64,000 nt of DNA from Candidatus Omnitrophota bacterium. Lineage in GTDB: Bacteria; Omnitrophota; Gorgyraeia; Duberdicusellales; 4484-171. The stretch covers positions 59,446 to 123,445 of the forward strand of contig PMCS01000030.1 of the NCBI GenBank assembly GCA_003154195.1, read 5' to 3'. The translations under genes and the position numbers were made by a program. The notes below the pieces were generated by a model. The model was not told where the DNA came from and ran no database searches. It was given only the letters and a program-made list of their open reading frames with translations. Numbering within the stretch: position 1 is the first letter of the stretch; the number at the start of each line of letters is the position of its first letter. This document shows, piece after piece, positions 2,862 to 63,256 of the stretch.

Positions 2862-4781
2862 ATGAATTACTTGCAGTTCGGATTATTTTTTATCTATGTT
2901 TTTTCTACTCTTTTGTGCGGAGCGGGTATCTATAATTTTATCGATAAAGGCCGTAAATCCATTATAAATAGAAGTATTTATTTAGGCGAAGTGTTTTTGC
3001 TGGGCAGTATTCTTCTTGTAGGGGAAATGCTGTTTTTATCTTTAATCGGGTTATATAAAGCCCCTTATCTCTGGGCGGTGGTGTTGGCAAATTTTATCCT
3101 TCTTTTCAATAAGGATATCAGGGGAGGAATCAGTTATCTTTGGTCAAAAAAAATAGCCGATGTTTTTCCGACAAGTATTTTCATTATTCTACTTGTTATT
3201 TTCTTTTTTAGAAATTGCTATTTTTTGTTTGATACGGATTCCTGTTCCACTTATTTATTTGCTCAAAAACTTTGGCTTTCTGCCGGGTCAAGCCTTACCG
3301 GCGGCATTGGGAGCGACGTGAGGATATTTGCCCCACAGTTTAACGCTGTTCCTTACAGTTTAGGATTGTCTCTTTTCGGCAACGAAACTTTATTCCCTCA
3401 GCTGGTGAATTTATTTTGGCGCCTGATCGTCCTTTTTCTGGTTTTTGGATATACGCGCTATCGTTTTAATGGATATTATGGATTAGCTGCCGCGATGTTC
3501 GTTCTTTTGAATGAGCATTTCTTTTATTCGGGTATCAACAAGGCGGTGATAATAAATGGAGCCGTTATCGCTTTTATTTTTGCCGCGGCATATAATTTTT
3601 GGGAAAGTCGTACCCAAAAAAATGATTTTCGTTTTTTATTAGCCCTGGTTTTCTTGAGCCAGATTATCGCTAATAAATATCAGGCGGCCGGAGTTTTATT
3701 TTTTTTAACCGTAATGGGATTTTTTGCGCAATTTAATCCCGTGAAACAAATAAAAGAAATACTGTACAATAGAAAATGGCGGGGTATTTTATTGGGGGCT
3801 TTGTTTATCCTGTCTTTATGGTTTATTAAGAATTTTTTATTGACCGGGGATCCGCTATTTCCGGCTTTTGCCGGTAAGCTTGGGGTTTTTAATTGGAACC
3901 CCGAACTGGAAAAAGTAATATTAAAGACGAGTTCAAGTTTAACCGCCGCGAAGTTTTTTAAATATATGAACTTCTTTTTTATCTGGCCGGGGATTAATGC
4001 CGCGAAATATGTAATCCTGACTATTGCTTTTTTTCCTTTAATTATTTTCAGGTATAGTATGAAATCCGAAATAGACAAGAGCCTGATTTTTGAATTGTCT
4101 TTTTGGCTGGGGGTTTCTTTATTAACGGTCATGGGGATATGTTTTGTAGCCTGGCAGGATCCCCGAGCTTACCGTTATCTCATCGGAGTGCTATCTTTTA
4201 CGGCTGTTTTTTCTATCCACTTTATCTTAAGATATGTATTTAATATTAGAAAAAAAATATTGTTATGCAGTGTAATGTTGATTTTACCCTTAATGGCTGG
4301 GGCTAATGAGGGTTACAAAATTATTTATCAAGCAGGGGGAGGCCTTGAAGTACCTGCGCTAAGAGATAATATCGATGTTATTTTAAATATAGCCCACACT
4401 GATCTCGTTATTAAAAAGCACTATCCCAACGTAGCATCAATACTAAATGTAATAAATGAAAATGAAGGAAAAATGGCCAAGAGCGCCTGGGATATCAATT
4501 CTTTTGACCTGAATTTCCCAGCTTTCTTTTTACCGGTGAGGCCGGTGGTTTCATTATGGGCGAGTACGATTATCAAATGGGATTCGTATAGCAGTGACAG
4601 CTTGATCGTTAATGATTTAAGAAGTTTTGGTATTGAATGGATTATGGAAATGAGGGAGGGAAAACTGGTTTTTCTTCCCATTGAAGAGTATGCCCGGGAA
4701 GCGGCGCGGTATGAGCGTTATCCGAAAACAACTTCCTTTGATTATGGGTTTCCCGAAGAATTAACCAGGGTTGTTTATTGA
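2862..4781 (+). CDS. Polytopic membrane protein, GT-C-like, with a C-terminal soluble domain. Paralog of the 4970 gene through a shared GDPLFP motif.
   Basis: About 12 predicted TM helices followed by a ~180-aa hydrophilic tail. The motif LLTGDPLFPAF recurs in the 4970 protein as YSGTPLFPF. GAGGGGA RBS upstream. Confidence 0.5.
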   Translation: MNYLQFGLFFIYVFSTLLCGAGIYNFIDKGRKSIINRSIYLGEVFLLGSILLVGEMLFLSLIGLYKAPYLWAVVLANFILLFNKDIRGGISYLWSKKIADVFPTSIFIILLVIFFFRNCYFLFDTDSCSTYLFAQKLWLSAGSSLTGGIGSDVRIFAPQFNAVPYSLGLSLFGNETLFPQLVNLFWRLIVLFLVFGYTRYRFNGYYGLAAAMFVLLNEHFFYSGINKAVIINGAVIAFIFAAAYNFWESRTQKNDFRFLLALVFLSQIIANKYQAAGVLFFLTVMGFFAQFNPVKQIKEILYNRKWRGILLGALFILSLWFIKNFLLTGDPLFPAFAGKLGVFNWNPELEKVILKTSSSLTAAKFFKYMNFFFIWPGINAAKYVILTIAFFPLIIFRYSMKSEIDKSLIFELSFWLGVSLLTVMGICFVAWQDPRAYRYLIGVLSFTAVFSIHFILRYVFNIRKKILLCSVMLILPLMAGANEGYKIIYQAGGGLEVPALRDNIDVILNIAHTDLVIKKHYPNVASILNVINENEGKMAKSAWDINSFDLNFPAFFLPVRPVVSLWASTIIKWDSYSSDSLIVNDLRSFGIEWIMEMREGKLVFLPIEEYAREAARYERYPKTTSFDYGFPEELTRVVY

Positions 4782-40010: not shown

Positions 40011-40193
40011 TGGGCAGATGCGGAGAGCCATATTGTGTATTTTTATACAGCCGAAAAGCAAACGGAGTTTACGCGGGCTTGCGCGTAAAACTTTATATAG
40101 GTATAAATATATTAACTTAACAACAATAATGTTTTTCTAATGGCAATTTATTTTCGCGGGAACCGCGAAGATAAATCAGGAGGGTTCAAACCC

Positions 40194-43100
40194 ATGCTTA
40201 ACCTACTTAACCACAAAAAAGTCAACGGTTTAACTAAAGTCTTAATTTCTACCCTGGCGTTTTTATTTTTCTTTTCCAGCCTGGGTATCTCGCGTGCCTT
40301 GCCGCAAGCTGGGCCCGGCGCCATTATGGCGAGCCTGCCGGTTCCGGGGCAGATGGTAAATATTACCCCGCCGTTCACTCCGGTGTTGATTAAAGGCCTT
40401 AAGCTCGACGTCAATGACCCGTTTAAATTCAACTTTATTGTCGAGCCGGGCGACAGCCGATTGAAAGACGCTCAATTAAAAGAAGAAATCTCCGATTTAG
40501 TGCGCTACTTCTTAACCGCCTTAACCGTTCCCGAATCTGACCTTTGGGTCAACCTTTCGCCGTTTGAGAACAGCCGTGTTATCACCGATGAATTGTCGTC
40601 GACCGATTTAGGCCGCGATTTGTTGGCTTCCGATTACATTCTCAAGCAATTAGTTTCTTCCCTGACCTATCCGGAATCGCCTTTAGGCAAAAAATTCTGG
40701 GATAAAGTATACAAGCGCGCCGGCGAATTATACGGCACCACCAAAATCCCGGTCAATACGTTTAATAAAATCTGGATTATGCCCGAATCGGCTTCGATTT
40801 ACGAGAACGGCAACCAGGTGATTATCTCCGATATTAAACTCAAAGTGATGCTGGAAGCGGATTATCTGGCGATGAAGAATACCAAGGGGCAGGGGGCAGG
40901 AGTCAAGGGCCAAAGCGAAAATACAAAAAAGGATATCAATGATTTAAGCGGGCAGATCATGAAGGAAGTGATCCTGCCGGTCATCGAGCAGGAAGTCAAC
41001 CAGGGAAAGAATTTTGCCAAAGTGCGTCAGATCACCTATTCGATTATCCTGGCCAGCTGGTTTAAACTGAAACTCAAAGACAGCCTGGTGGCTAAAGCCT
41101 ATGCCAATAAAAAGACGATGAAGGGCGTCGATACCAGCGACCCGGCGTTACGCGAACGCATTTATCAGCAATATGTCTCCGCCTATAAAAAGGGCGTCTA
41201 TGACTATATCAAAAAAGAATTCGAAGGTAATTCTTCGCGCCAGGTAAGGCGCAGGTATTATTCCGGCGGGTATACCATCAGTAATGCTGTAGAGTTGGTC
41301 AGCGGCGGGGTGGAGGTCACCACCCCCCAGTTTGCTCAAGCCGCGGCTCGTAAAGAAACAGTAATCGCCACGGCTTTAGTAAACGAGGGGGGCGTCACCG
41401 CTTCGCCGGTTGGAATCATGTCGTCCCCGTTGGCTAGAGTCACTGAACTAAAAGGTAAGATAATTCCTTCTCTTGAAAGGGATCTTGCGGCAAAAATGGC
41501 TGTGCATCGAAAACAACAGGCGAATATCAAGGACGAACATCAGCGACAGGTGGGCATATATGCGAGAACTTGGGCTACGCAGGCACTTCTCAAATATGAC
41601 ACTGAAATCAGTAAGAGAGCCAACTACGATGGTGACAGGGTAGCCGCCGCTTGGGCAGATCTACAACAGGCTAAAGCTGCGTGGAATGTAGAAAAAGAAC
41701 TTGATCAACGTCGTTTGGAACTAGCGAGCCTAGAACTAGAAATAAGAATAAAAAAAAGAGGGTCTTCGGCGGTAGCCGCTTCGCCGGTAACACCTGTGGA
41801 GGATGGATTTACCTCGGCAATAGCCGGTTTTTACGCTATGGCGGGCCAAGCTAAACCTGATTGGCGAACGATGCGAGCTGAAGTTGAAGGAAAATATAAT
41901 ACGCTCAAGGCAGAATTAGATAGAGCCCACGAGGAAGCCGACAGACAATATAAGGAAAGGATGACTCAGAACAATGAATTACTTCAAGCATGGTCTGACT
42001 TGGAAGAGGCTGTAGGAAAAGTAGCGAAAGAATTAAGGCAAGTAGAAACAGAAATGGCAAATGTTGCTGGCCAGGAAGGTAGTCAAGATAAAGTATCTGC
42101 TTTGCGACAGCGATTAGATGAAATAAAGGCAAGATATTCATCGATTCTTGCTAAAAAAGACGAAGCTGATGCCCGTATGGTAGCAGATTTCAATGAAAGA
42201 GTGAACCCCTTAAGACTTTCCTTGGAGACTATCGAAATCAAACTCCTTGCTGCTGAATTAGAGTTTAGGATGGTTATGGCGGGATATCCTAACGTTGGAA
42301 TTATGAATGGTATTATCCAGGAATATGAGACAGGAGCAAGAACGCATTCGACTTTGGCAGACTATAGAGAGATGATTGGTCACGAATCGATTACTGAAGA
42401 GATGCTTAAACCTTTGGCGGAAGCGATAGAAAGAGCCAAGGCACGCGTTGCTGATCTTAAGGCTAAAGAAGGTAAGGCTTCGGATGCGGCTCAAGAAGCG
42501 CCGACCGCGCCGACCGCGCCGGCCGCGCCGGCCGCGCCGACCCACGAAGCTGAGTCAACGGCCAGAGCTTTAGAGACCCCGGAGGTAACGCCAACGCAAG
42601 TCACTATGCAGTCGACGGAAATGTTGGCTGCAGCGGTTAATGATTTGGCAGACCAACATCGGGTGCGCTCTGAAGCAATGGTAAGGGCGCAGGCAAAACG
42701 TGAGACGCTGAAAACAGAGCTTGAGGCGGCGAGGCAGGCGGCCGATTCAGCTCTCGGCCAATCAGACTATGATACGCTTCGAGAAGCCTGGGCGCAAAAA
42801 AGCAGAGAATGGGATGAATTTATCACGCAGACATTTAACCCTCAAGTTGATCCATATAATGCCGGTTTAGCCCGGTTGCAAGCGGCCAGGATAGCGGCTG
42901 ATGTGGTGGCGTATAGAGGCGAAGGCCGGAGCATCGGGGATACTGATGTTAAGATGTGGCAGGCCCTGGGCGATAAGATTAGGGCGACAATTGAGTACTT
43001 AGAAGATACGGGAGAACGGTTCGCGGAGCCGCACAATAATGCCCCGACGGTTGAGCAGCTCAAGAATCTTGACGCGGAATTGGCATTAGCTAAAAGTCAT

Positions 43101-46100
43101 CTTAGCGTGGCGTACTATGCGCAAGGGTTAACGGAAACGCCGGCTTTTTTAAACGAGCTTTCCCAGGCCAGCGCGGAAAATCAAGATAGAGCGATTAAAG
43201 AAATTGTTAAGATTGCCCAAGGTAAAGGAAAAGTCTTGGCGGAAATAATCAGGCTCATTAATAGAACATCCGGTCTGCCGGAAAACCTTCGGCCGGTTAC
43301 CACTAAGCTTCTTGCCGCGATACATAAAGAACCGGGTTCGACGAAGGATTTGCTCGGGCGTCCCAGGGCGCCTAAGATCCGGGCCGCCGTGATTGATGCG
43401 CTCGATAAAATTCCCGGAAGCGACAGTGATGCAGCGCTTGAGCTTATTGGGGTTGGGCCTGGGGGTGAAGCCGTGCCTGGGGGTGAAGCCGCGATGGATG
43501 TTTTAGCGACACGAAAACAGTTAGGGGGTAGAATCGGCAGTGGAGAGCCGGAAAGAGGGGATAGCGGTATGCGGAGACTTTTAGAAGAATTCCCCCCTGA
43601 TCCGGATAAGCCGACACCATCAGACTCGGCTAAGGACGCAGCGGCCAAGCTTGCCGCCGCGGCTAAAGCTGGTGACGCCAGTGCGGCGACAGCCGCGGTG
43701 CTGGATGCATCCATGGGAGTGGACCGCGTAGCTCAAGCCAGCAAGACCGGAACCGACTCGGAGCGTATTACCGCTCTTGATCTTCTTTTTTCGATTGCTA
43801 CTACCGGCCAGGGGTCGCGCCGCGCCCGCTGGGCGATTACTGATGCCGCGGTTAACGCCGATAGTTCAGCTGCCGTGCGGATTGCCGCGCTTAAATATCT
43901 TGGCGCGCTCAACAATCACGCCGCGCTTCCGGCGCTTAACCATGTAATTAACGATATCGCTGGTAGGTCTCAGGCGGATAGGGATAAAGCCGGCCTTGCT
44001 GCGGTCAGCGAGGCGGCGCGCCAGGCTATCAAAGATATCAATGAAACCAATGCCAAGCCCAATGCGCTTGTCAGATTAACCAACGCTTTTAAGGCAATTT
44101 ACTATAGGTTGATAACCAATAGCGCCCAAAGCGCGCCTGCGGGTGCATCTACGACTACGTCAACTGCCAAGGGCGGTGGTAATGTCGTCGGCGGGGGAAA
44201 TGACGATGCTGCCGCTAAAGCTCTTGCTCAAGCAAAAGAAGCCGCGGCTCAAGCCCTTACTGAAGCAAAGGCAAAAGTCGAACCCGTTACTGCTGATTTG
44301 AGAGATAAACAACATCAAGCCGAAATCGAAGCTACAATTGCGGCACGTACGCAAAGAGAGTTTGTGGAATTGGGTAAACAACGGGCCGCCAAAGAAAAAG
44401 AATTGGCCGATGCCCAGGCGGCAAAAACTGCCGCCGACCAGGCTGTTGCCACTCTTGAGGCGCCGCCGGTTAAAGTGCCGGGGAAAAGAGCGCCCTCGGC
44501 TGCTAAGAGGAAAAAAGACCTTGCCCAAGCCAGGAAAAATGCCGGGTACGCCACGGCTGAAGTCGAGAATCGTACGCGGGGATTGAATGATTTGGTATCG
44601 CTTGCGGTGAATCCGGCTGAAGCCAGGGCTGCAGCGGCTAAGACTGCGGCTGATGAGGCCGCGAAGCTTGCGGCAGAGGCCGAAACACAGGCAAAAGCGG
44701 CGCAAACCGCAGTTGACGAGGCGCAAGCTAAGGTGGAGCAATTGAATGCGCCGCCTAGCCAGTCCACCGGAACGGCGGCCGGCAATAAGCCGAATTTAGC
44801 TGTCGACGCCGCCAAGAAATTAGCCGATATCCCGCCGGATGAGCCTGTGTCGGTAGAGGAGAGTTTAGCTGAAGCCGCCGCCCGGATATTGGGCCACGGC
44901 GCTTCCGAAATAATCAATAGTGATCCGGAGGTAGCTGCCGTCCGGCTTTTAGATATTTTAAAAGACCCTGATCAATCTGCCGACCGCATCTCTGTTTTGA
45001 GATTGCTGGGGGAGATAGCCATGACTGAAATAATTGCTAAATATCGGCCGCAAGAAGCTGTGCCTGCGTCGGAAGGAGGGCCGGCCGTGTCGTCCGCGGT
45101 AAAAGTGATGAACGTCGAGTTGTCTTCTCATGTTGGGGCTATTTTGAATGCTATACTTGCTACTTTTAGGCAGGAAGGGGATGCCGGTATCCGTATCGCC
45201 GCGCTTGAGCAATTAGTCGAGTTAGGTTTATCTTTCCCCCCTGAAAGTGGGGGACGGGTTCCGATAATAAATGCAATCCAGTCAGTTGCCAAGAGCGGGA
45301 AAGGAGAAGATAAAGCAGTAATAAAAGCCGCTAAACAGGCTTTGATCGATATGGGGGTTCGTAGCAAATTGGGAAGGATAGGGCTACTTGCGGGGTTGGC
45401 GGTGGCGGTGGCTTTTGGCGGCTACGCGTTGCAACATGCCATGCAGGCTCCCGTCCCCGGCCTTGTTCCGGGCGTCGGCCATCTACCCGGAGGCCCCGAC
45501 GGAGGCCTCGATGTCGGACATCACGGCGCAAATCTGCCCCAGTTGATTATGCCTTCCCAAATGCCCCCGGATGATTATAAGTGGAGCCTGGAGCAGAACA
45601 GCGCGGGAAAATTGTTTTGGGTTGCCGTACCCGATTATTCTAAGCATCCCGATATTATGACCAGAGACCAAATTAATACACTTTATAATCCTCCGCCCGG
45701 TTTTTATCGGGACGGGAGTGATGCAGGCAGGTTGAATGCTTGGCTGGTGCCGATGTTTCCTATACCGGTACAGTCTACAGCGCCGGCCGGAACCGATACC
45801 GGTGTTCAAACTGCTACCGGCGTCATGGCCATCGATGCCGCAGTCCAGAAAGTCGCCGTTTCCGCGGCTCGTGAGGCGTTAGCCAATAGAGATACCGGCA
45901 AATCCGCGCTGGATTCCCAAGCGGTAACGCCCGACGCCGGAAAAAGCGACAAAACTGCCGTCGATGGCGGTACTACAGTAGATGTTCCCGGAGCGTATAC
46001 TACTACTCCGGTGGAAAAGGAAAAGATTCCCGCGACATCCCCTCCGGCTGATAATGGGAGCAATCCGACCGGAACAGGAGCAGCAGCAACCACAGGCGAT

Positions 46101-47315
46101 GCGGGAAAGACTGTGACTCAAGCTCCCGCGGCAACAGGCAACGCGAATGTTAAAAAACAAGCAGGAAAAAACGACGATAAAGTAATGAAAAAACTCCACG
46201 ATGAAGAAATGGCCAAACGAGCGAATGCGAAATTACTTTTGGAAACGGCCATCCATGACTATCTGTTGGATCATGGAATGCCCACGGATGATGGAGCAAT
46301 CCAGAAAATAAGGGCAGACAATAAGCTTGAGGGCGATCACAAAATCCCATTTCACAATCCGTACTATATTCGTATTAATGGAACATCAGTTAAGGTACCC
46401 GGAGCAGATTCATTACCTCTATCTCTGGCCACGAAAGCCCCGGCGGCGAAAGCTGCGAGACTTAGTTTTGACCAAGCGATAGAGGGGGATTTGGCTTCCC
46501 CCTCCGGCCCCACCCATGTTGATCGCGGCGTTCGTAAGGCTACTGAAAAGGTTAAAAATGATATAGCCAGCATCAATGGCTACAAGCGGACTCCTGACGG
46601 CCTTTTGACAGATGATGGTAAGCCGGTTCCGCCGGGGAAAAAGCTATTAATGGTACCGCCTTCACTGGGTGACCCTTATTATGAGTCAGCGCTTAAGGAT
46701 TTCCAGGCAAAGGCATACGCTTATCTGCAGCAACATCCTGACGCTTCGATGGACGAAGCGATAGATTATGTCGACCGTACCACCCCGCCTTATCAGGAGA
46801 CTAAGTGGGCATACGCTGGTTCAGAACAGGGGGGTAAAGAAGGACGTAGAGTTCCGCTTGGTAAGCCGGTAACTTTTAGGGATTTAGTAGAGCACAATGG
46901 TATTGTTTGGGATGGCCCGTCGGATAACAACGCCCCCTCCGGTACCGCGACTGGTGATAGCGGTACTCCCGGGGTTGGGCACGGTAACACGCCGGGTGAT
47001 GCGACCGGCATTGGTGGGGGAGTAAAGGCGAAGGTACTAGATTTTCTTCACGAGGCGGGGTTCGGCCGCCAGCTTCCGACAACGCAACAGGTTTTTACTG
47101 GACTTAAGGGAATGAGCAGCAGTTCGCCGGACACTAAAGGCGGTATCGATATGAACACCGCCAAGACGGCGATGAATATCAAAGGCGACGGGAAATTCGC
47201 TTTTGCTTCCTCGGCGCTTAAGGCCGACGGCCAGTCTTGGAAGGGGATTACGTTTACCATCGTGAAGGTAGAAAGGATCACTAACCCCGCGTTATTTTTC
47301 GCCGCGTCGCGATAG
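40194..47315 (+). CDS. Giant secreted/membrane protein 1 (2373 aa). It has a signal peptide, a conserved ~330-aa N-terminal domain of unknown function, coiled-coil and HEAT/PBS-lyase-like repeat regions, one internal TM helix, a Thr/Pro/Gly-rich region and a conserved ~55-aa C-terminal module.
   Basis: AGGAGG RBS 9 nt before the ATG at 40194. Signal peptide KVLISTLAFLFFFSSLGIS. The N-domain is ~80% identical to that of the 47582 gene. HEAT-like repeats include VRIAALKYLGALNNHAALPALNHV and IRIAALEQLVELG. The TM helix is RIGLLAGLAVAVAFGGYAL. The C-terminal module is IDMNTAKTAMNIKGDGKFAFASSALKADGQSWKGITFTIVKVERITNPALFFAASR. Confidence 0.8.
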   Translation: MLNLLNHKKVNGLTKVLISTLAFLFFFSSLGISRALPQAGPGAIMASLPVPGQMVNITPPFTPVLIKGLKLDVNDPFKFNFIVEPGDSRLKDAQLKEEISDLVRYFLTALTVPESDLWVNLSPFENSRVITDELSSTDLGRDLLASDYILKQLVSSLTYPESPLGKKFWDKVYKRAGELYGTTKIPVNTFNKIWIMPESASIYENGNQVIISDIKLKVMLEADYLAMKNTKGQGAGVKGQSENTKKDINDLSGQIMKEVILPVIEQEVNQGKNFAKVRQITYSIILASWFKLKLKDSLVAKAYANKKTMKGVDTSDPALRERIYQQYVSAYKKGVYDYIKKEFEGNSSRQVRRRYYSGGYTISNAVELVSGGVEVTTPQFAQAAARKETVIATALVNEGGVTASPVGIMSSPLARVTELKGKIIPSLERDLAAKMAVHRKQQANIKDEHQRQVGIYARTWATQALLKYDTEISKRANYDGDRVAAAWADLQQAKAAWNVEKELDQRRLELASLELEIRIKKRGSSAVAASPVTPVEDGFTSAIAGFYAMAGQAKPDWRTMRAEVEGKYNTLKAELDRAHEEADRQYKERMTQNNELLQAWSDLEEAVGKVAKELRQVETEMANVAGQEGSQDKVSALRQRLDEIKARYSSILAKKDEADARMVADFNERVNPLRLSLETIEIKLLAAELEFRMVMAGYPNVGIMNGIIQEYETGARTHSTLADYREMIGHESITEEMLKPLAEAIERAKARVADLKAKEGKASDAAQEAPTAPTAPAAPAAPTHEAESTARALETPEVTPTQVTMQSTEMLAAAVNDLADQHRVRSEAMVRAQAKRETLKTELEAARQAADSALGQSDYDTLREAWAQKSREWDEFITQTFNPQVDPYNAGLARLQAARIAADVVAYRGEGRSIGDTDVKMWQALGDKIRATIEYLEDTGERFAEPHNNAPTVEQLKNLDAELALAKSHLSVAYYAQGLTETPAFLNELSQASAENQDRAIKEIVKIAQGKGKVLAEIIRLINRTSGLPENLRPVTTKLLAAIHKEPGSTKDLLGRPRAPKIRAAVIDALDKIPGSDSDAALELIGVGPGGEAVPGGEAAMDVLATRKQLGGRIGSGEPERGDSGMRRLLEEFPPDPDKPTPSDSAKDAAAKLAAAAKAGDASAATAAVLDASMGVDRVAQASKTGTDSERITALDLLFSIATTGQGSRRARWAITDAAVNADSSAAVRIAALKYLGALNNHAALPALNHVINDIAGRSQADRDKAGLAAVSEAARQAIKDINETNAKPNALVRLTNAFKAIYYRLITNSAQSAPAGASTTTSTAKGGGNVVGGGNDDAAAKALAQAKEAAAQALTEAKAKVEPVTADLRDKQHQAEIEATIAARTQREFVELGKQRAAKEKELADAQAAKTAADQAVATLEAPPVKVPGKRAPSAAKRKKDLAQARKNAGYATAEVENRTRGLNDLVSLAVNPAEARAAAAKTAADEAAKLAAEAETQAKAAQTAVDEAQAKVEQLNAPPSQSTGTAAGNKPNLAVDAAKKLADIPPDEPVSVEESLAEAAARILGHGASEIINSDPEVAAVRLLDILKDPDQSADRISVLRLLGEIAMTEIIAKYRPQEAVPASEGGPAVSSAVKVMNVELSSHVGAILNAILATFRQEGDAGIRIAALEQLVELGLSFPPESGGRVPIINAIQSVAKSGKGEDKAVIKAAKQALIDMGVRSKLGRIGLLAGLAVAVAFGGYALQHAMQAPVPGLVPGVGHLPGGPDGGLDVGHHGANLPQLIMPSQMPPDDYKWSLEQNSAGKLFWVAVPDYSKHPDIMTRDQINTLYNPPPGFYRDGSDAGRLNAWLVPMFPIPVQSTAPAGTDTGVQTATGVMAIDAAVQKVAVSAAREALANRDTGKSALDSQAVTPDAGKSDKTAVDGGTTVDVPGAYTTTPVEKEKIPATSPPADNGSNPTGTGAAATTGDAGKTVTQAPAATGNANVKKQAGKNDDKVMKKLHDEEMAKRANAKLLLETAIHDYLLDHGMPTDDGAIQKIRADNKLEGDHKIPFHNPYYIRINGTSVKVPGADSLPLSLATKAPAAKAARLSFDQAIEGDLASPSGPTHVDRGVRKATEKVKNDIASINGYKRTPDGLLTDDGKPVPPGKKLLMVPPSLGDPYYESALKDFQAKAYAYLQQHPDASMDEAIDYVDRTTPPYQETKWAYAGSEQGGKEGRRVPLGKPVTFRDLVEHNGIVWDGPSDNNAPSGTATGDSGTPGVGHGNTPGDATGIGGGVKAKVLDFLHEAGFGRQLPTTQQVFTGLKGMSSSSPDTKGGIDMNTAKTAMNIKGDGKFAFASSALKADGQSWKGITFTIVKVERITNPALFFAASR
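42498..42542 (+). repeat. In-frame 9-bp tandem repeat (x5) encoding APTAPTAPAAPAAPT within giant gene 1
   Basis: gcgccgacc gcgccgacc gcgccggcc gcgccggcc gcgccgacc. Confidence 0.8.
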
Positions 47316-47581: not shown

Positions 47582-50500
47582 ATGCTTACTTTTAATCCAA
47601 AAAAATCAAATGCCGGTAAAGTTTTTTCGTCTTTTATGGCGTTTGTTTTTTTCTTTACCAGCTTAGGCACGGGTAAGGCCTTTTCGGATAACGGGCAATT
47701 AAGCCTTGCGTCTCTGCCTTTACCGGGCCAGATGGTCAATCTCACTCCGGTGTTTACTCCCGCCCTGCTCAAAGGCCTGAAACTTGACGCGAACAATCCG
47801 TTAAGATTCAATTTCATCGTCGAACCGGGCGATACGAAATTCGGCGAAGCGAAACTAAAAGAAGAAGTCTCCGATATGGTCCGCTATTTCCTGGCCGCGC
47901 TGACCATACCCGAATCTGACCTCTGGGTAAACCTTTCTCCGTTCGAAGGCGGCAGGGTAATCACCGATGAATTGTCGTCAACCGATCTGGGCCGCGACAT
48001 GCTGGCTTCCGATTATTTATTGAAACAATTAGTCTCTTCCCTGACCTATCCCGAATCAGCCTTAGGCAAAAAATTCTGGGAAAAAGTGTACAGAAGAGCC
48101 AATGAAGTTTATGGGACGGCTAAGATACCGGTCAACACTTTTAACAAAATATGGATTATGCCGGAGTCGGCATCGATTTTTGAGAACGGGGATAAAGTGG
48201 TAATCTCCGATATCAAACTGAAGGTGATGCTGGAAGCTGATTATTTTGCTATGCAAAATAATCAGGCCAAAGACCAAAAAACTGGAAAACCGAAAAACGA
48301 AAAAACTTTTACCACGGGTAATCAATCTGACGGTAAAGCGGTTAATGATTTATCCGGGCAGATCATGAAAGAAATCATCCTGCCGGTCATCGAGCAGGAA
48401 GTAAACCACGGCCAGAGTTTTGCCAAATTGCGCCAGATCATCTACTCCGTCATTCTGGCCGGTTGGTTTAAATTAAAATTAAAAGACAGTATTGTCAACC
48501 AGACTTACAGCGATAAAAAGAAGATGAAGGGCGTAGATACTTCTGACCCGGCGTTAAAAGAAAAGATATATCAACAATACGTGCAGGCTTATAAGAAAGG
48601 CGTCTATGATTATATCAAGAAAGAATTCGAGGCTAATTCCCATAGACAAGTCCGGCGCCGTTATTTCTCCGGCGGCGTAGAGCTTCTCTACGGGAAGCTT
48701 GTCGGTGATACCCAGCGAGTTCCCCCTGAAGCGTTTGCCGGAAAATTAAGCAGTCCGCTCGAAGCCGAGGCGGCCACGGTTGAGTTAGCGCCGGCTTCGC
48801 TGCCTAATAGTTTCCTGGGCGAGGTGCCTCCGGGCTATGTCAGCCCATGGGTTGACCGGAAAGGTAAAGATGGCCCAATCGATCAGCATTTGCCTACATT
48901 GGCTCAATACGATAATGTCCTAATCGCTATAACGACGGGGCCTGAGGCCGTAGAGGAGATTGTCACGAGAGAAGGCCCGCTTGCGGCGCCCAATTTTGTC
49001 AGGGCGCTCGAGGATAATGCTATGGGAGAATTTAGGAAAGAAATTATTAACGTTCTTGGTAGAATAGGAGATGCGAGCGCAATTGGCAATATCGTCAGGT
49101 TCGGCATTGATTACATTGGTAGAAAAACCCCGGCTGGAGAAGTGCGCGCAGTGCATTTAGCCGCAATCGAGGCGATTAAGAATATAGGTATGCGCTATAT
49201 TTGGAATATTGATCATGCTTTTTGGATGCTTAGCCTTGCGGTGGAGGGAATAGGGGACGCGGAGCTTCACGCAAAAGCGATTGACGCTCTCAGGGAAATG
49301 GCGGCCTTGATGGTTAAGACTAACCCGATAGATGATGAAAAAGCCGTATACGCTTCCAGGCTCGCTTATTACAGGCAATTTTTCCAGAGGCTTCTGAGCA
49401 TGGCTAGGACTAAACCTAATAAAAGAGGTGTAGTCGATTATGGAGTTGTAGACAAGGATGTCCGTATCGTCGCTATTTCTGCTCTCGCGCCTGTAACTGC
49501 AGCCGCTAAAGATAATAGATTTGTTTCTGATCCCGAATATGATGGCTTTCTTTCGGGTGTTCGTTCGGAACTTACGGGTGTGGCTACTGATGAAAAAGAC
49601 AATCCGGAGGTGCGCGCCGCCGCAGTTCGTGCTCTTGGGGTGATGGCTGCTAATAAGCGGTTCCCGATCATGATTTATCATACACTTGAAGATATGTTTA
49701 CAAGAGACAGTCCGGATATGCCGGATATTGTTAGGGCTGCTCTTCGCGAGGTTCTTCCGGCGGTAAGCAAAGACGCCGGTACTGTCGCGGCTTCTCCGGT
49801 TACCGCCCTGAAGCCCGCGGCCGCGGATGAGGCCAGGCCGGGAGAGACAGGGCGAAAGCGGGGAGATGTTTTAAGAGCACTTAGGGCTTCTGAAAGAGAC
49901 CTGGCAACTTTAGAAGCCGCCTTAGAAGCTAAAAGTTGGGCATATCAATTATATACGGCGGGCTTTGATGAAGCCGCCGCAGGAGAGTTAACCGACGCTG
50001 TCAGGGTTAAGAAGCTTCCGCTTACAGGCAGGTATCGGCCCACTGATGATGGGGTCATGTTGATTGTTCATGCCGAGATTGGGGCGATTTCACGCACCGA
50101 AACGGAGCGTCTTGGTAGTTTAGAAAGACAAAGAGAAATCAGGGAGCTTGATGATAAGGTTAAAGCTAAAAGAGCGCAGGTTATTGAGCTCGGATGGGCG
50201 GCGCGTGAGCTTGAGGCAGCTCAGCAGGAGCGCCATGCTGTCGCCCTGAGAAGATTAGAAGAATTAAAGGCTAAATTTCAAAAGGCGGTGTCTGGTTTTA
50301 CAAGCGCTTTAGAAGAAGCTCAAGGGAATGGCCCAGAGGCTGTTGCTGCCGCCAGGGGTGATCTTGATAAGTTGTTGGGAGAAATCCAACTCGCCGGCGA
50401 CGCGATTACGCAAGCGTTGGCTCGTTATAGAGAAGAGGGGATCGATCTTGGCGATGAGGCTCTGGTTGCCGGGACGCGTACTATCGGGGGAAAACCGGCA

Positions 50501-52084
50501 GAGGATACAATCTTGGAAGTGCAAACTATCATCGCTCGGTTGAGAGTAGATATGAGGGAATTATCCGATGCCCACAATCAGGCAGTGCAAGAAACCATCG
50601 AGCGATTAAGAGGGGATACAAGGGAGTTAGCTTTAGTATCGCTCGGGGAGTTTCTGTCCGACCGCGATACGGGACTTATAAGGTCGGGGGCTTCAAAGAA
50701 TTCCAGCGTCGGGCGAGGTAATTGGTTATGGAATTTGTTGAGGAGCAGGTTTACATACGCGGTTCTGATAGGAGGCGTGTTGGGTGGCCTTGCCGCGTTT
50801 CCTGTAGCCAGGTCTACTAATGCGGTCAAGCTCGATGTTTCTCTTAAGATTAAAGGAGGATTGACGGAGGCCGTGGCGCCGGCGTCGAAGCCGGAGCCAG
50901 GGTACGTAGGCTTTTTTCAGCTTCCAGAGCAGCCTAGCCCGTGGACGAGGACGATAGTAGTAAAAGCAAAGAAAGGCGATACTGTAGATGGACTATTAGG
51001 TAAGTATAACCCGGAATGGCCTGAACTTTCTCATGAAATGAGGATGGGCGGGCGAGAAGCTTTACGTGATTTTAATCCAGGAGTAGGGCCGGCATATCTT
51101 ATAATAGAAGGCAAGCGTTATAGAATACCTGCATATGTCAGTTCCGCGGTAGCCGAAGCGGCACAGGCGCGCGATAGAGATGGTTTGCAGGGGGAACTTA
51201 AAAGGGTTCAGGCAGAGCTTGAGCTTGCCTTACTGAAGCAGCGCGGCCTTAGAGGGGAAGCTGTCAAAACAAATCAGAGGCATGTCGCGGCGCTTGAGCG
51301 GAGGAGGGAAGCTATTGAGGCATCGTTAGTGGAGATAACGCTGGATGAGGCATTTAAGGGATTGCTTGATTTAGAACAATACGAGTCTAACTTAGCTAAA
51401 GGAAACGAGCAAGTCGGGGTGTCTTCAAAAGACCTCGCCGGTTCATTACCGGATTTAGGTAAGCAATATGATATCTTTGTCAGATGGCTTGTGTCTGAGT
51501 ACGATAGGATAGGGGGGGTAAAGATATTTCCAATACCAGCTTCAAAGGTGGAGCACTTAACTGCTATACTCAGCAGTCTTAATGATGGGCTGGAATCTGC
51601 CCAAGTATGGCAGAAAGAGATCTCTGGAATTTTGTCAAGATACGAGAGATTGCTCGGCGAGCCGCTTTTTACAGTAGATTATGAATTAGACAGATTACGG
51701 CCGGTTGTGGAATCAGCGCCAAAAACCAATGAACTTTATACTAAATTGATTGCGGATATTAATGAGTTGATAGCAAGGGCCAGCAGGGATCTTGCAGTAG
51801 CGAGAGAAGAAGCAAGGGCCGCGTCGCATCATCAAACAGTAACCGGTAGAGTTGTTGAGAAGCGTGCCAGCGCGAGTCCTGTCGGCGCGAGTTCTAACGC
51901 ACCCGTCGGCGGTATTGATTTAAACACTGCGAAAACAGCGATAAAGATCAAAGGCGACGGCAATTTCGCTTTTGCTTCCTCGGCGCTTAAGGCCGATGCG
52001 TCGGGGTTATTGGGATATACGTTTACCATCGTGAAACTGGAAAAGATCGCTGATCCCACCGCGTTCTTCGCCTCCGCCAAATAA
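47582..52084 (+). CDS. Giant secreted/membrane protein 2 (1500 aa), paralog of 40194-47315. It has a signal peptide, the conserved N-domain, HEAT-like repeats, coiled coil, an internal TM helix, a LysM-like segment and the conserved C-terminal module.
   Basis: Signal peptide FSSFMAFVFFFTSLGTG. N-domain SLPLPGQMVNLTP...YFSGG. HEAT-like repeats include PEVRAAAVRALGVMAANK. TM helix FTYAVLIGGVLGGLAAFPV. LysM-like KKGDTVDGLLGKY...AYLIIEGKRYRIP. C-terminal module IDLNTAKTAIKIKGDGNFAFASSALKADASGLLGYTFTIVKLEKIADPTAFFASAK. Confidence 0.8.
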   Translation: MLTFNPKKSNAGKVFSSFMAFVFFFTSLGTGKAFSDNGQLSLASLPLPGQMVNLTPVFTPALLKGLKLDANNPLRFNFIVEPGDTKFGEAKLKEEVSDMVRYFLAALTIPESDLWVNLSPFEGGRVITDELSSTDLGRDMLASDYLLKQLVSSLTYPESALGKKFWEKVYRRANEVYGTAKIPVNTFNKIWIMPESASIFENGDKVVISDIKLKVMLEADYFAMQNNQAKDQKTGKPKNEKTFTTGNQSDGKAVNDLSGQIMKEIILPVIEQEVNHGQSFAKLRQIIYSVILAGWFKLKLKDSIVNQTYSDKKKMKGVDTSDPALKEKIYQQYVQAYKKGVYDYIKKEFEANSHRQVRRRYFSGGVELLYGKLVGDTQRVPPEAFAGKLSSPLEAEAATVELAPASLPNSFLGEVPPGYVSPWVDRKGKDGPIDQHLPTLAQYDNVLIAITTGPEAVEEIVTREGPLAAPNFVRALEDNAMGEFRKEIINVLGRIGDASAIGNIVRFGIDYIGRKTPAGEVRAVHLAAIEAIKNIGMRYIWNIDHAFWMLSLAVEGIGDAELHAKAIDALREMAALMVKTNPIDDEKAVYASRLAYYRQFFQRLLSMARTKPNKRGVVDYGVVDKDVRIVAISALAPVTAAAKDNRFVSDPEYDGFLSGVRSELTGVATDEKDNPEVRAAAVRALGVMAANKRFPIMIYHTLEDMFTRDSPDMPDIVRAALREVLPAVSKDAGTVAASPVTALKPAAADEARPGETGRKRGDVLRALRASERDLATLEAALEAKSWAYQLYTAGFDEAAAGELTDAVRVKKLPLTGRYRPTDDGVMLIVHAEIGAISRTETERLGSLERQREIRELDDKVKAKRAQVIELGWAARELEAAQQERHAVALRRLEELKAKFQKAVSGFTSALEEAQGNGPEAVAAARGDLDKLLGEIQLAGDAITQALARYREEGIDLGDEALVAGTRTIGGKPAEDTILEVQTIIARLRVDMRELSDAHNQAVQETIERLRGDTRELALVSLGEFLSDRDTGLIRSGASKNSSVGRGNWLWNLLRSRFTYAVLIGGVLGGLAAFPVARSTNAVKLDVSLKIKGGLTEAVAPASKPEPGYVGFFQLPEQPSPWTRTIVVKAKKGDTVDGLLGKYNPEWPELSHEMRMGGREALRDFNPGVGPAYLIIEGKRYRIPAYVSSAVAEAAQARDRDGLQGELKRVQAELELALLKQRGLRGEAVKTNQRHVAALERRREAIEASLVEITLDEAFKGLLDLEQYESNLAKGNEQVGVSSKDLAGSLPDLGKQYDIFVRWLVSEYDRIGGVKIFPIPASKVEHLTAILSSLNDGLESAQVWQKEISGILSRYERLLGEPLFTVDYELDRLRPVVESAPKTNELYTKLIADINELIARASRDLAVAREEARAASHHQTVTGRVVEKRASASPVGASSNAPVGGIDLNTAKTAIKIKGDGNFAFASSALKADASGLLGYTFTIVKLEKIADPTAFFASAK

Positions 52085-61935: not shown

Positions 61936-62008
61936 GCCGACGTAGCTCAGTTGGTAGAGCAGTGGTTTTGTAAACCACAGGCCGGGGGTTCGAGTCCCTT
62001 CGTCGGCT
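61936..62008 (+). tRNA. tRNA-Thr (anticodon TGT)
   Basis: Cloverleaf read by hand: acceptor GCCGACG, D arm GCTCAGTTGGTAGAGC, anticodon arm GTGGT-TTTGTAA-ACCAC, T arm with TTCGAGT, 3' CGTCGGC. Confidence 0.85.
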
Positions 62009-62048: not shown

Positions 62049-62753
62049 ATGAAAAGTAATCTTTTGAACTCCGAACATATTAAGAGTCTTTATTGGGAAA
62101 AAGATTATAATGTTTCTGAAATTGCCCGTAAGGTAGGTATTTCTGCGCGCGCTTTGCACGATTTCATGAATAGGAACAACATACCAAGGCGTTTACCTTC
62201 AGAAGCTGGATATATTGCTAATAAAAATAAACCTCAATTTAGAATCGTAGGTAATCTCGATAATTTTAAACAACAATTAAAAACAGCCGGTCTTATGTTA
62301 TATTGGGCCGAAGGGACATTCAGCGGTAATACTGTTGATTTTGCCAATAGCAATTCTTCCATGATTAAAATATTTCTAAGATTTTTAAGAGAAATTTGTG
62401 GCGTTAAAGAGGAGAGACTGCGAGTTTATCTTTACGCGTATTCATATCAAAATATAGATAATTTAAAGTTATATTGGCATAAGGCAACAGGTATTTCTTT
62501 GAAACAATTTACTAAGCCTTATGTGCGTAGAGGTAATGCTAATTTAAGCAAAAGAAAACTTCTTTATGGGCTCGTTCATATCAGATATAATGATAAACGG
62601 TTATTAAAAATTATTGAAAAGTGGCTCTTTGAATATAGTAATTCGTGGACAGGTACCCAAGTGGTCAACGGGGACAGACTGTGGTTAACGCAGCATTCTG
62701 TTGAAAGGCAGAATGAAAAAGCGGGTGAATTCAGGGAAGCCCTTCTGGGGTAA
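62049..62753 (+). CDS. HTH-containing protein with a degenerate single LAGLIDADG-like motif (putative homing-endonuclease-like). Its 3' end overlaps the tRNA-Tyr 5' exon and the first 70 nt of the intron.
   Basis: N-terminal HTH (VSEIARKVGISARALHDF). TAGLMLYWAEGTFSGNTVDF resembles LAGLIDADG blocks with Glu in place of Asp. The last 35 codons are the translation of the tRNA exon and intron P1-P2. Confidence 0.35.
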   Translation: MKSNLLNSEHIKSLYWEKDYNVSEIARKVGISARALHDFMNRNNIPRRLPSEAGYIANKNKPQFRIVGNLDNFKQQLKTAGLMLYWAEGTFSGNTVDFANSNSSMIKIFLRFLREICGVKEERLRVYLYAYSYQNIDNLKLYWHKATGISLKQFTKPYVRRGNANLSKRKLLYGLVHIRYNDKRLLKIIEKWLFEYSNSWTGTQVVNGDRLWLTQHSVERQNEKAGEFREALLG

Positions 62754-62960
62754 TCCTGAGCCAAGCCCTTGACGTTATCTGCGTTAAGGGAAGGTGCAGA
62801 GACTAGACTGAAAAGTCGTAGGCCTTTCAGCAGGCCGAAGCGCCCGCCGCCTAAGGTTAAAAAAGCTATGGCGATGAGATAGTCCAAGCCTCGAGGTAAC
62901 TTGAGGGCACTTGAAATCTGTTGCGCTTGCGCTTCGAAGGTTCGAATCCTTCCCTGTCCA
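62647..62960 (+). tRNA. tRNA-Tyr (anticodon GTA) split by a 231-nt group I intron in the anticodon loop. Exon 1 is 62647-62682 and exon 2 is 62914-62960.
   Basis: Exon 1 is GGACAGG-TA-CCCAAGTGGTCAACGGG-G-ACAGA-CTGT. Exon 2 is AAA-TCTGT-tgcgcttgcgc-TTCGAAGGTTCGAATCCTTC-CCTGTCC-A. The joined loop is CTGTAAA, as in bacterial tRNA-Tyr. The acceptor stem GGACAGG/CCTGTCC is perfect. The long variable arm and T arm resemble E. coli tyrT. Confidence 0.75.
62683..62913 (+). ncRNA. Group I (IC3-like) self-splicing intron
   Basis: The 5' exon ends in U and the intron ends in G. P1 pairs cugu with gcag and has a U.G wobble at the splice site. The P2 hairpin is cattctg-ttgaaagg-cagaatg. The R-like element gcAGAGACTAGa and the S-like element gatgAGATAGTCC together form P7 (GACUA/UAGUC). 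Confidence 0.7.
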
Positions 62961-63077
62961 CTGTTTTCATAATTCCACTGGTGTGGGGATATTGAGTCAG
63001 GCTATCGTGAGGCAAGGCCTAATACATTTTCGGAACAAACAGCCGCTTCGCGGCGCTTTGACTTCGTCAAAGGTTTG

Positions 63078-63100
63078 TTGCGAATCCTTCCCTGTCCATA
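63078..63100 (+). repeat. Duplicated fragment of the tRNA-Tyr 3' end (CGAATCCTTCCCTGTCCA)
   Basis: 18 of 18 matches to 62943-62960, located 120 bp downstream of the tRNA. Confidence 0.6.
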
Positions 63101-63182: not shown

Positions 63183-63256
63183 GCGGGCGTAGTTCAATGG
63201 TAGAACACTAGCCTTCCAAGCTGGATACGTCGGTTCGATCCCGATCGCCCGCTCCA
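63183..63256 (+). tRNA. tRNA-Gly (anticodon TCC), 3' CCA encoded
   Basis: Acceptor GCGGGCG/CGCCCGC, D arm GTTCAATGGTAGAAC, anticodon arm CTAGC-CTTCCAA-GCTGG, T loop TTCGATC. Confidence 0.85.

Follow-up and report, generated by a model that had tools for sequence, protein, structure and literature searches.

Which gene lies between tRNA-Thr and tRNA-Gly in a transfer RNA (tRNA) cluster where the usual finders report nothing more, and what interrupts it? The cluster is part of a stretch of 64,000 nucleotides (nt) of contig PMCS01000030.1 (assembly GCA_003154195.1, positions 59,446 to 123,445), which we call the window and to which all positions refer; judged by its neighbouring proteins and by the homologues of an open reading frame (ORF) upstream of the site in question, it belongs to Candidatus Omnitrophota. 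We conclude, with a probability of roughly 90%, that the gene is a tRNA-Tyr(GUA) in a Thr-Tyr-Gly cluster, split by a group I intron of 231 nt that lies between anticodon bases U35 and A36. Both ARAGORN with default settings and the Rfam tRNA model miss it and return just tRNA-Thr and tRNA-Gly here. As its main practical consequence, tRNA-Tyr escapes the standard tRNA finders in this phylum and will look absent from its genomes. The upstream ORF is most likely a free-standing gene of the homing-endonuclease type living in tRNA clusters, and it is this neighbouring family, found in Omnitrophota, Patescibacteria and large phages, that matters more than the intron and holds the main scientific interest.

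The interrupted tRNA-Tyr gene and its intron

The initial annotation, made from the letters alone, had assembled a canonical tRNA-Tyr(GUA) from exons at 62647-62682 and 62914-62960, with a 7-base-pair (bp) acceptor stem, the anticodon loop CUGUAAA, a long variable arm and a T arm like that of Escherichia coli, and had placed between anticodon positions 35 and 36 a group I intron of 231 nt. Run with introns allowed, ARAGORN reports a tRNA-Tyr(gta) at 62647-62961 whose base 36 is followed by a 231-nt intron, written i(37,231), which is the anticodon position 35/36. It also recognizes the joined exons (36 + 47 nt) as a tRNA-Tyr with all of these structural features, the T arm being of standard form, and the proposed exons proved correct to the base. 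The joined exons are 80.6% identical over 72 nt to the annotated E. coli tRNA-Tyr (all 5426 genomes), and CCA is not encoded at their 3' end. The splice sites are unique, since a 7-nt anticodon loop results from no other combination of 5' and 3' sites. U62682, the last base ahead of the 5' splice site, pairs with G62690, and the last base of the intron is G62913. ARAGORN found no other tRNA-Tyr within the window.

The Rfam group I intron model (RF00028, Intron_gpI) matches 62593-62906 with 86.8 bits, against a gathering score of 50, and an E-value of 9e-21; the match begins too far 5', inside the upstream ORF, and we therefore took the exact boundaries from the exons. Of the covariance models to which the initial annotation had looked for support, the intron model thus scores above its cut-off, while the tRNA model sees only the two flanking genes. 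The details listed there (a U.G pair in a 4-bp P1 of cugu and gcag, a terminal G, a P2 hairpin and P7) are all present in the sequence, the order tRNA-Thr, tRNA-Tyr, tRNA-Gly is borne out by ARAGORN and Rfam for the flanking genes, and the earlier group I call is supported as a real finding with the right interpretation.

We assigned the helices P1 to P9 on the window sequence (Table 1) and counted base pairs on a MAFFT alignment of 25 introns, with P7 treated as a pseudoknot. The intron's ribozyme core, made up of P3-P9 and including the P3/P7 pseudoknot, belongs to the small type known from bacterial tRNA introns and is similar to subgroup IC3: it has a P2, no P5abc or P2.1, a contact between L2 and P8, and J6/7-P7 and J8/7 sequences of the IC3 type. 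The core appears to be held together by docking of the GAAA loop of L2 into the 11-nt receptor in P8. P1 in the window is extended by the pair G62683-C62689. The two-hairpin insert (33-36 nt) is found only in the window and in loci L012, L013, L019 and L023, most Omnitrophota tRNA-Tyr introns being without it; its first hairpin, a 4-bp stem with a GNRA loop, shows compensatory changes, and the two small hairpins between P7 and P3 are an addition of the window's lineage.

Relatives of the intron were collected in two ways. A genome scan seeded with the upstream ORF gave 80 loci, ARAGORN was run on every one, and intron extraction was anchored on its calls; a metagenome scan with the invariant 18-mer of the intron core, GATGAGATAGTCCAAGCC, gave further tRNA-Tyr introns. 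About 35 of the 40 Omnitrophota-like loci have a tRNA-Tyr with a 181-290-nt intron at the identical site, in the order tRNA-Thr(UGU), ORF, tRNA-Tyr, tRNA-Gly(UCC), and the tRNA-Thr neighbour is kept in nearly all Omnitrophota loci. ARAGORN labelled a few of these introns as Ser or Phe by way of a shifted splice site, and yet their sequences all read GACTGT/intron...CTTG/AAATCTG. Altogether 50 distinct introns were available, mostly from Omnitrophota (37 from genomes and 13 from metagenomes), with GACTGT/...CTTG/AAATCTG or a close variant throughout, and in all 37 genome-derived introns the terminal G stands directly before AAA(U/C)CUG. The identical 231-nt intron occurs in four independent assemblies of the organism (L001, L002, L004, L006), which rules out an assembly artefact.

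The alignment argues strongly for the proposed fold. Standard pairs make up 99.2% of the 1275 pair cells, both sides have changed in 21 of the 51 pairs, and compensatory changes are located in P2, P3, P6, P6a, P8 and P9. The CUGU/GCAG pairing of P1 is unchanged in 25 of 25 aligned sequences. Beyond it, 45 of the 50 introns have a pair between their first base and the one just 5' of GCAG, with six pair types (G-C, A-U, C-G, U-A and wobble). The tertiary contact follows the same pattern: 31 of the 37 introns with a GAAA loop in L2 have the 11-nt receptor CCUAA(A/G)...UA(U/A)GG in P8, and all seven with a GUAA loop are without it and have a plain P8 helix. Because helices and tertiary contact partners co-vary across 50 distinct relatives, we see selection for folding. 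This points to a ribozyme under selection and not a relic; selection on both secondary and tertiary structure over so many lineages would be difficult to account for in an RNA that does not fold and splice.

Judging from tRNA group I introns that have been characterised, splicing would proceed as follows. As the precursor folds, the last four exon bases, C32-U35, would pair with the guide GCAG to form P1, in which the splice site falls at the U.G wobble. There a free guanosine that is bound in P7 would make the cut, after which G62913 would occupy the same site and the exons would be joined, giving the loop CUGUAAA and a normal tRNA-Tyr.

Several points weigh against this reading and its details. 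The 25 sequences share ancestry, so the shuffle control, in which none of 500 shuffles reached the observed values on four of five measures and one of 500 did on the fifth, overstates significance; sliding the 3' partners by 1-3 columns, which lowers pairing to 35-48%, is the fairer control. P1, P4 and P7 are invariant and for that reason uninformative about pairing either way. The search for tRNA-Tyr covered the 64-kb window, and a second, intron-less gene may lie elsewhere in the genome. Self-splicing in the cell is something we infer. Finally, the signs of the subgroup are mixed: an IC3-like core stands against a P7.1/P7.2-like insert, which is a trait of IA introns, and Nakagawa et al. 2026 (PMC13011429), using subgroup models, placed 25 of 28 introns at 35/36 in IA.

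Table 1. Positions of the tRNA genes, the intron helices and the adjoining elements in the window
Feature	Position	Strand	Description and basis
tRNA-Thr(UGU)	61936..62008	+	First gene of the Thr-Tyr-Gly cluster; ARAGORN; Rfam tRNA model, 73 bits
Upstream ORF, AT-rich	62049..62645	+	199 conserved codons; N-terminal helix-turn-helix, C-terminal LAGLIDADG-like domain
tRNA-Tyr(GUA) exon 1	62647..62682	+	Acceptor 5' strand, D arm, anticodon stem 5' strand, C32-U35; sequence, ARAGORN
P1	62679..62693	+	Exon CUGU 62679-62682 with internal guide GCAG 62690-62693; U35.G62690 at the splice site
Group I intron, 231 nt	62683..62913	+	Between anticodon U35 and A36; omega-G 62913; RF00028, ARAGORN, covariation
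P2 hairpin	62694..62715	+	9 bp, GAAA tetraloop 62703-62706; compensatory changes in 7 of 9 pairs
P3 5' strand	62721..62727	+	GCGGGUG, pairs with 62841-62847; 100% of cells paired; two compensatory pairs (U-A/C-G, A-U/G-C)
P4-P5-P6/P6a domain	62731..62794	+	P4 and P5 nearly invariant; P6 and P6a compensatory
P4	62731-62736 with 62754-62759	+	
P5	62740-62742 with 62748-62750	+	
P6	62761-62762 with 62793-62794	+	
P6a	62766-62774 with 62782-62790	+	
P7 5' strand	62799..62805	+	G, bulged A, GACUA; pairs with 62880-62885; pseudoknot with P3; invariant in 25 of 25
P7.1/P7.2-like insert, 33 nt	62806..62838	+	Two hairpins between P7 and the P3 3' strand; GACU-GAAA-AGUC and GGCC-loop-GGCC
P3 3' strand	62841..62847	+	CGCCCGC; alignment
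P8	62848..62873	+	GAAA tetraloop receptor of the 11-nt type (CCUAAG ... UAUGG)
P7 3' strand	62880..62885	+	UAGUCC; GACUA 62801-62805 pairs with UAGUC 62880-62884
P9 hairpin	62889..62906	+	7 bp, GUAA loop; compensatory changes in 5 of 7 pairs
tRNA-Tyr exon 2	62914..62960	+	A36-A38, anticodon stem 3' strand, long variable arm, T arm, acceptor 3' strand, discriminator A
Decayed duplicate ('ghost') of the tRNA-Tyr 3' part	63053..63099	+	Variable arm, T arm, acceptor 3' strand; local alignment
tRNA-Gly(UCC)	63183..63256	+	Third gene of the cluster; ARAGORN, Rfam tRNA model

The upstream reading frame and other insertions

Two elements of the locus had escaped the initial annotation: the ORF that runs into exon 1 and the decayed copy of the tRNA 3' end downstream. 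The guanine and cytosine (GC) content of the ORF is 30-35%, against ~46% nearby. Its conserved part stops at 62645, one base before tRNA-Tyr, and no stop codon belongs to the ORF itself, its frame running on across exon 1 and into the intron as far as a TAA at 62751-62753. Its homologues end in C-terminal tails (WAGTQVAKGDRL...) translated from exon 1 of the respective tRNA-Tyr, and beside an intron-less tRNA-Tyr the frame ends at the UAA made by the anticodon-loop bases U35, A36 and A37. The family is unnamed and has >500 members (322 genome loci), and an internal stop was found in only one of 81 copies.

The C-terminal domain is predicted to have a LAGLIDADG-like alpha/beta fold. Profile searches of the ORF against Pfam, NCBIfam, PHROGs and PDB gave a match for the N-terminal helix-turn-helix alone and none to a LAGLIDADG family, and the hhalign comparison of the family with what we take to be the I-CreI sequence gave a probability of 0.1, which is not significant. 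The motif AGxMLYWAEG closes the first long helix (residues 72-88), and E88-G89 is invariant in 81 of 81 copies from both phyla; we infer that E88 is equivalent to the catalytic aspartate or glutamate of LAGLIDADG enzymes.

Wherever a tRNA lies within the contig, the distance from the end of the ORF's conserved part to a tRNA gene is 1-81 nt in the 80 genome loci, and mostly 1-25 nt. The gene at this end is tRNA-Tyr in 67 loci; counted over all arrangements, the ORF adjoins tRNA-Tyr in 70 of the 80, the remainder lying beside another tRNA or at a contig end. Seven Patescibacteria loci have the ORF next to tRNA-Thr(GGU), with tRNA-Tyr ~200 nt upstream of the ORF, and the Patescibacteria copies are mostly found beside an intron-less tRNA-Tyr. 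Among metagenome loci with an intron-bearing tRNA-Tyr and enough upstream DNA, the ORF is present in nine (one of them decayed, L144) and absent in seven; since such loci without the ORF exist, the intron does not need it. L146 and L163 have no ORF and spacers of 76 and 44 nt, and L166, with 90% identity to them in the pre-tRNA, carries the ORF in an otherwise equal syntenic setting; to judge by this comparison they are an empty and an occupied site. In L144 (6225-6578) the ORF copy has an internal deletion (residues ~73-150) beside an intact intron-bearing tRNA-Tyr, which fits the decay of a selfish gene.

In the viral contigs L206-L215, 10 of 10 distant homologues (28-37% identity) lie inside or directly beside the tRNA genes of large phages, one of them (L207) ending 8 nt before tRNA-Cys. 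Weak homologues (30-33% identity) are located 25-40 nt upstream of an intron-bearing tRNA-Asn in L107 (3995-4468) and L127 (1280-1672), and L105 has a second copy, 32% identical, further along the contig (5345-5899). The simplest reading of these observations would be a family of free-standing genes of the homing-endonuclease type that colonises tRNA clusters.

The last 18 nt of the ghost (63082-63099), which lies 120 nt downstream of tRNA-Tyr, are identical to 62943-62960. Of 47 loci, 7 have a similar ghost, at a distance of 105-370 nt downstream of tRNA-Tyr, and the DNA in between is mostly unrelated among loci. These ghosts look like footprints of insertions at the tRNA-Tyr 3' end. An integrase-type island at the tRNA 3' end was considered for the ghost and rejected, there being only 120 gene-free nt between the two copies in the window, at most a remnant. 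In L105 a complete second tRNA-Tyr exon 2 with a different acceptor strand lies 150 nt downstream of the gene (2880-2930). In L033 (~3960-4270) a small GIY-YIG-like ORF (MWYVYILRCKDGSFYTGSSNN...) is located between tRNA-Tyr and a ghost of its 3' end, by its sequence a second kind of nuclease gene inserted at tRNA-Tyr. Mobile DNA is attracted to both ends of the tRNA-Tyr gene. Just after tRNA-Tyr in L068 (1810-2071), ARAGORN calls a tRNA-Arg(gcg) with a 188-nt intron, which by published comparison is probably a tRNA-Thr(GGU) with a 'divergent' Patescibacteria group I intron.

A scan for promoters and terminators around the tRNA cluster gave no more sites than shuffled sequence and is therefore uninformative on transcription units. 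Elsewhere in the window, two very long ORFs lie on the + strand at 40140-47315 (2391 amino acids) and 47582-52084 (1500 amino acids).

Alternative explanations for the locus

The intron and the ORF could form one mobile unit, a reading that we put forward tentatively. The putative enzyme would cut the anticodon arm of an intron-less tRNA-Tyr, CAGA-CUGUAAA-UCUG (CAGACTGTAAATCTG); the intron, located at the centre of this target, would protect its carrier, and repair of the cut allele would copy ORF and intron into it (collaborative, or trans, homing). Proximity is one argument for it, as the conserved part of the ORF ends 1-25 nt from tRNA-Tyr in most of the 80 loci and hence ~40 bp from the insertion site. 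The nature of the protein is another: a LAGLIDADG-like C-terminal fold, with a glutamate at the end of the motif helix that never varies among the copies, in a product with a single domain. Single-domain LAGLIDADG enzymes of the I-CreI type are usually homodimers acting on near-palindromic sites, and the arm is palindromic with the intron at its centre.

A further argument comes from the arm itself. This 15-nt palindrome, listed in the window at 62674-62688 joined to 62914-62920, is found in 51 of 52 intron-bearing tRNA-Tyr genes of the survey (loci L007-L086 and L087-L205), while the acceptor, D and T arms vary; the CAGA/UCUG stem occurs in none of the 41 intron-less tRNA-Tyr genes that adjoin the ORF, five of them Omnitrophota-like. 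A requirement of the ribozyme for this stem was judged unlikely: tRNA-Asn introns of the same family occupy 19 different stems, so the ribozyme seems not to demand a fixed one. There are also precedents, in phages (PMC3984707) and in an endonuclease with specificity for the tRNA-fMet anticodon region (Bonocora and Shub 2001, as described in a paper that cites it).

Against these arguments, ORF and intron also occur apart, in the intron-less Patescibacteria loci and in the seven metagenome loci without the ORF. In phage tRNA arrays, where no group I introns are seen, distant relatives of the ORF adjoin a wide variety of tRNAs, which agrees better with a gene living in tRNA clusters in general than with one tied to the intron. 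Shared ancestry could explain the association of stem and intron, the intron-less loci being the more distant lineages, and the comparison of stems draws only on loci selected for having the ORF or the intron. It is possible, though we would not expect it, that the tRNA-Tyr locus is a two-part mobile system undescribed for bacterial tRNA genes, with a free-standing single-domain endonuclease of the LAGLIDADG type flush against the tRNA 5' end. The movement of ORF-less bacterial tRNA introns between genomes has been debated since the 1990s. Such a system, if true, would explain their spread and would change a view reached recently, by which tRNA introns hardly move for want of internal endonuclease genes; the locus offers a concrete test case for the idea that an ORF moves an intron.

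Alternatively, the ORF may be no nuclease at all but a domesticated DNA- or RNA-binding protein, a WhiA-like or maturase-like helper that regulates or assists the tRNA operon. This we consider doubtful. The ORF is present in one and absent from another of otherwise syntenic loci (L166 against L146 and L163) and has decayed in L144, it is far more AT-rich than its surroundings, it abuts the tRNA without a stop of its own, and its relatives reside in phage tRNA arrays. WhiA has lost its catalytic residues, whereas the ORF family keeps without exception the acidic residue that closes its LAGLIDADG-like helix. A role as splicing helper cannot be general, since most Patescibacteria copies lie beside an intron-less tRNA-Tyr.

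That the intron is defunct and the locus a tRNA-Tyr pseudogene, the working tRNA-Tyr being encoded elsewhere, is very improbable: the 64-kb reach of our inspection, the missing CCA and the decayed copy 120 nt downstream, which marks the locus as rearranged, speak for it, but the joined exons give a flawless tRNA, the ribozyme helices and tertiary partners co-vary across the 50 relatives, the Thr-Tyr-Gly order is retained and the window has no other tRNA-Tyr.

Relation to known introns and homing systems

The classical bacterial tRNA introns interrupt tRNA-Leu at 34/35, tRNA-fMet at 33/34, and tRNA-Arg and tRNA-Ile2 at 36/37. The window intron has much in common with the IC3 introns of Azoarcus tRNA-Ile(CAU) and cyanobacterial tRNA-Leu(UAA): a small ribozyme with P2 and no P5abc, GAAA in L2, the 11-nt receptor in P8 and a GNRA loop in L9. 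With what we take to be the Azoarcus sequence it shares long identical blocks in J3/4-P4, J6/7-P7 and P8-P7. It differs from these introns, which sit at 36/37 or 34/35, in its 35/36 site and in having two extra hairpins inserted between P7 and P3. The exact 18-nt J8/7-P7 core GATGAGATAGTCCAAGCC is common to the window intron, tRNA-Asn introns at 35/36 and tRNA-Ile2(CAU) introns at 36/37; in the metagenome loci L087-L205 it was found in ~65 tRNA-Asn(GUU) introns at 35/36 and ~9 tRNA-Ile2/Met(CAU) introns at 36/37. Several of the tRNA-Asn introns that bear it are ~550 nt long and may carry an internal ORF.

The initial annotation had called an intron at 35/36 of tRNA-Tyr unusual, which overstates its rarity. 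The tFind survey, which raised the number of known settings to 21, had already catalogued the site in 2020 (bioRxiv 10.1101/2020.01.27.920355; Asn.4Ug as cited in PMC13011429), and Table 1 of PMC13011429 gives one Tyr(GUA) intron at 35/36, from a Patescibacteria genome. That paper reports precise in vitro self-splicing at 35/36 for tRNA-Asn and tRNA-Asp of Patescibacteria. It counts 28 introns at this site in 4934 complete genomes, none of them listed from Omnitrophota, and the one Omnitrophota genome found in the part of its supplement covered here has an fMet intron at 33/34. The Patescibacteria 35/36 introns, which interrupt tRNAs with GUN anticodons, share with ours the U35/N36 site, the exon target CUGU, U at -1 and G at omega, a size of ~180-290 nt and the absence of an internal ORF. 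The window intron differs in its host, Omnitrophota, in its tRNA, Tyr (one case there), and in a core that is IC3-like where theirs were classed as IA; moreover, only intron-internal endonuclease genes were counted there, and the LAGLIDADG-like gene of the window lies directly outside the tRNA. Our full-text literature search found no paper on an Omnitrophota tRNA-Tyr intron. The kind of intron is thus known, and what is new is the phylum Omnitrophota and that nearly all of the loci retrieved from it have the intron in tRNA-Tyr. The intron extends the 35/36 class of GUN-anticodon tRNAs to Omnitrophota and to tRNA-Tyr, where it appears to be the rule and not an oddity.

For the upstream ORF, the nearest parallels are found in phages. 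SegB of T4, a GIY-YIG enzyme, and the F-Tfl enzymes of T5, which are of the HNH type, are free-standing homing endonucleases encoded in phage tRNA clusters. The ORF family shares with them a nuclease-type gene wedged between tRNA genes and differs in being LAGLIDADG-like and common in the bacterial chromosomes of two phyla. Collaborative homing, which pairs a free-standing endonuclease with an intron lacking an ORF, has been described for F-CphI and the psbA intron in cyanophage S-PM2 and for mobE and I-TevIII in T4 (PMC3984707, PMC6083498, PMC2790892). Those cases involve phage protein-coding genes, non-LAGLIDADG enzymes and measured cleavage, whereas here the setting is a bacterial tRNA operon, the LAGLIDADG-like protein is known from its sequence and predicted fold, and ORF and intron are also found apart.

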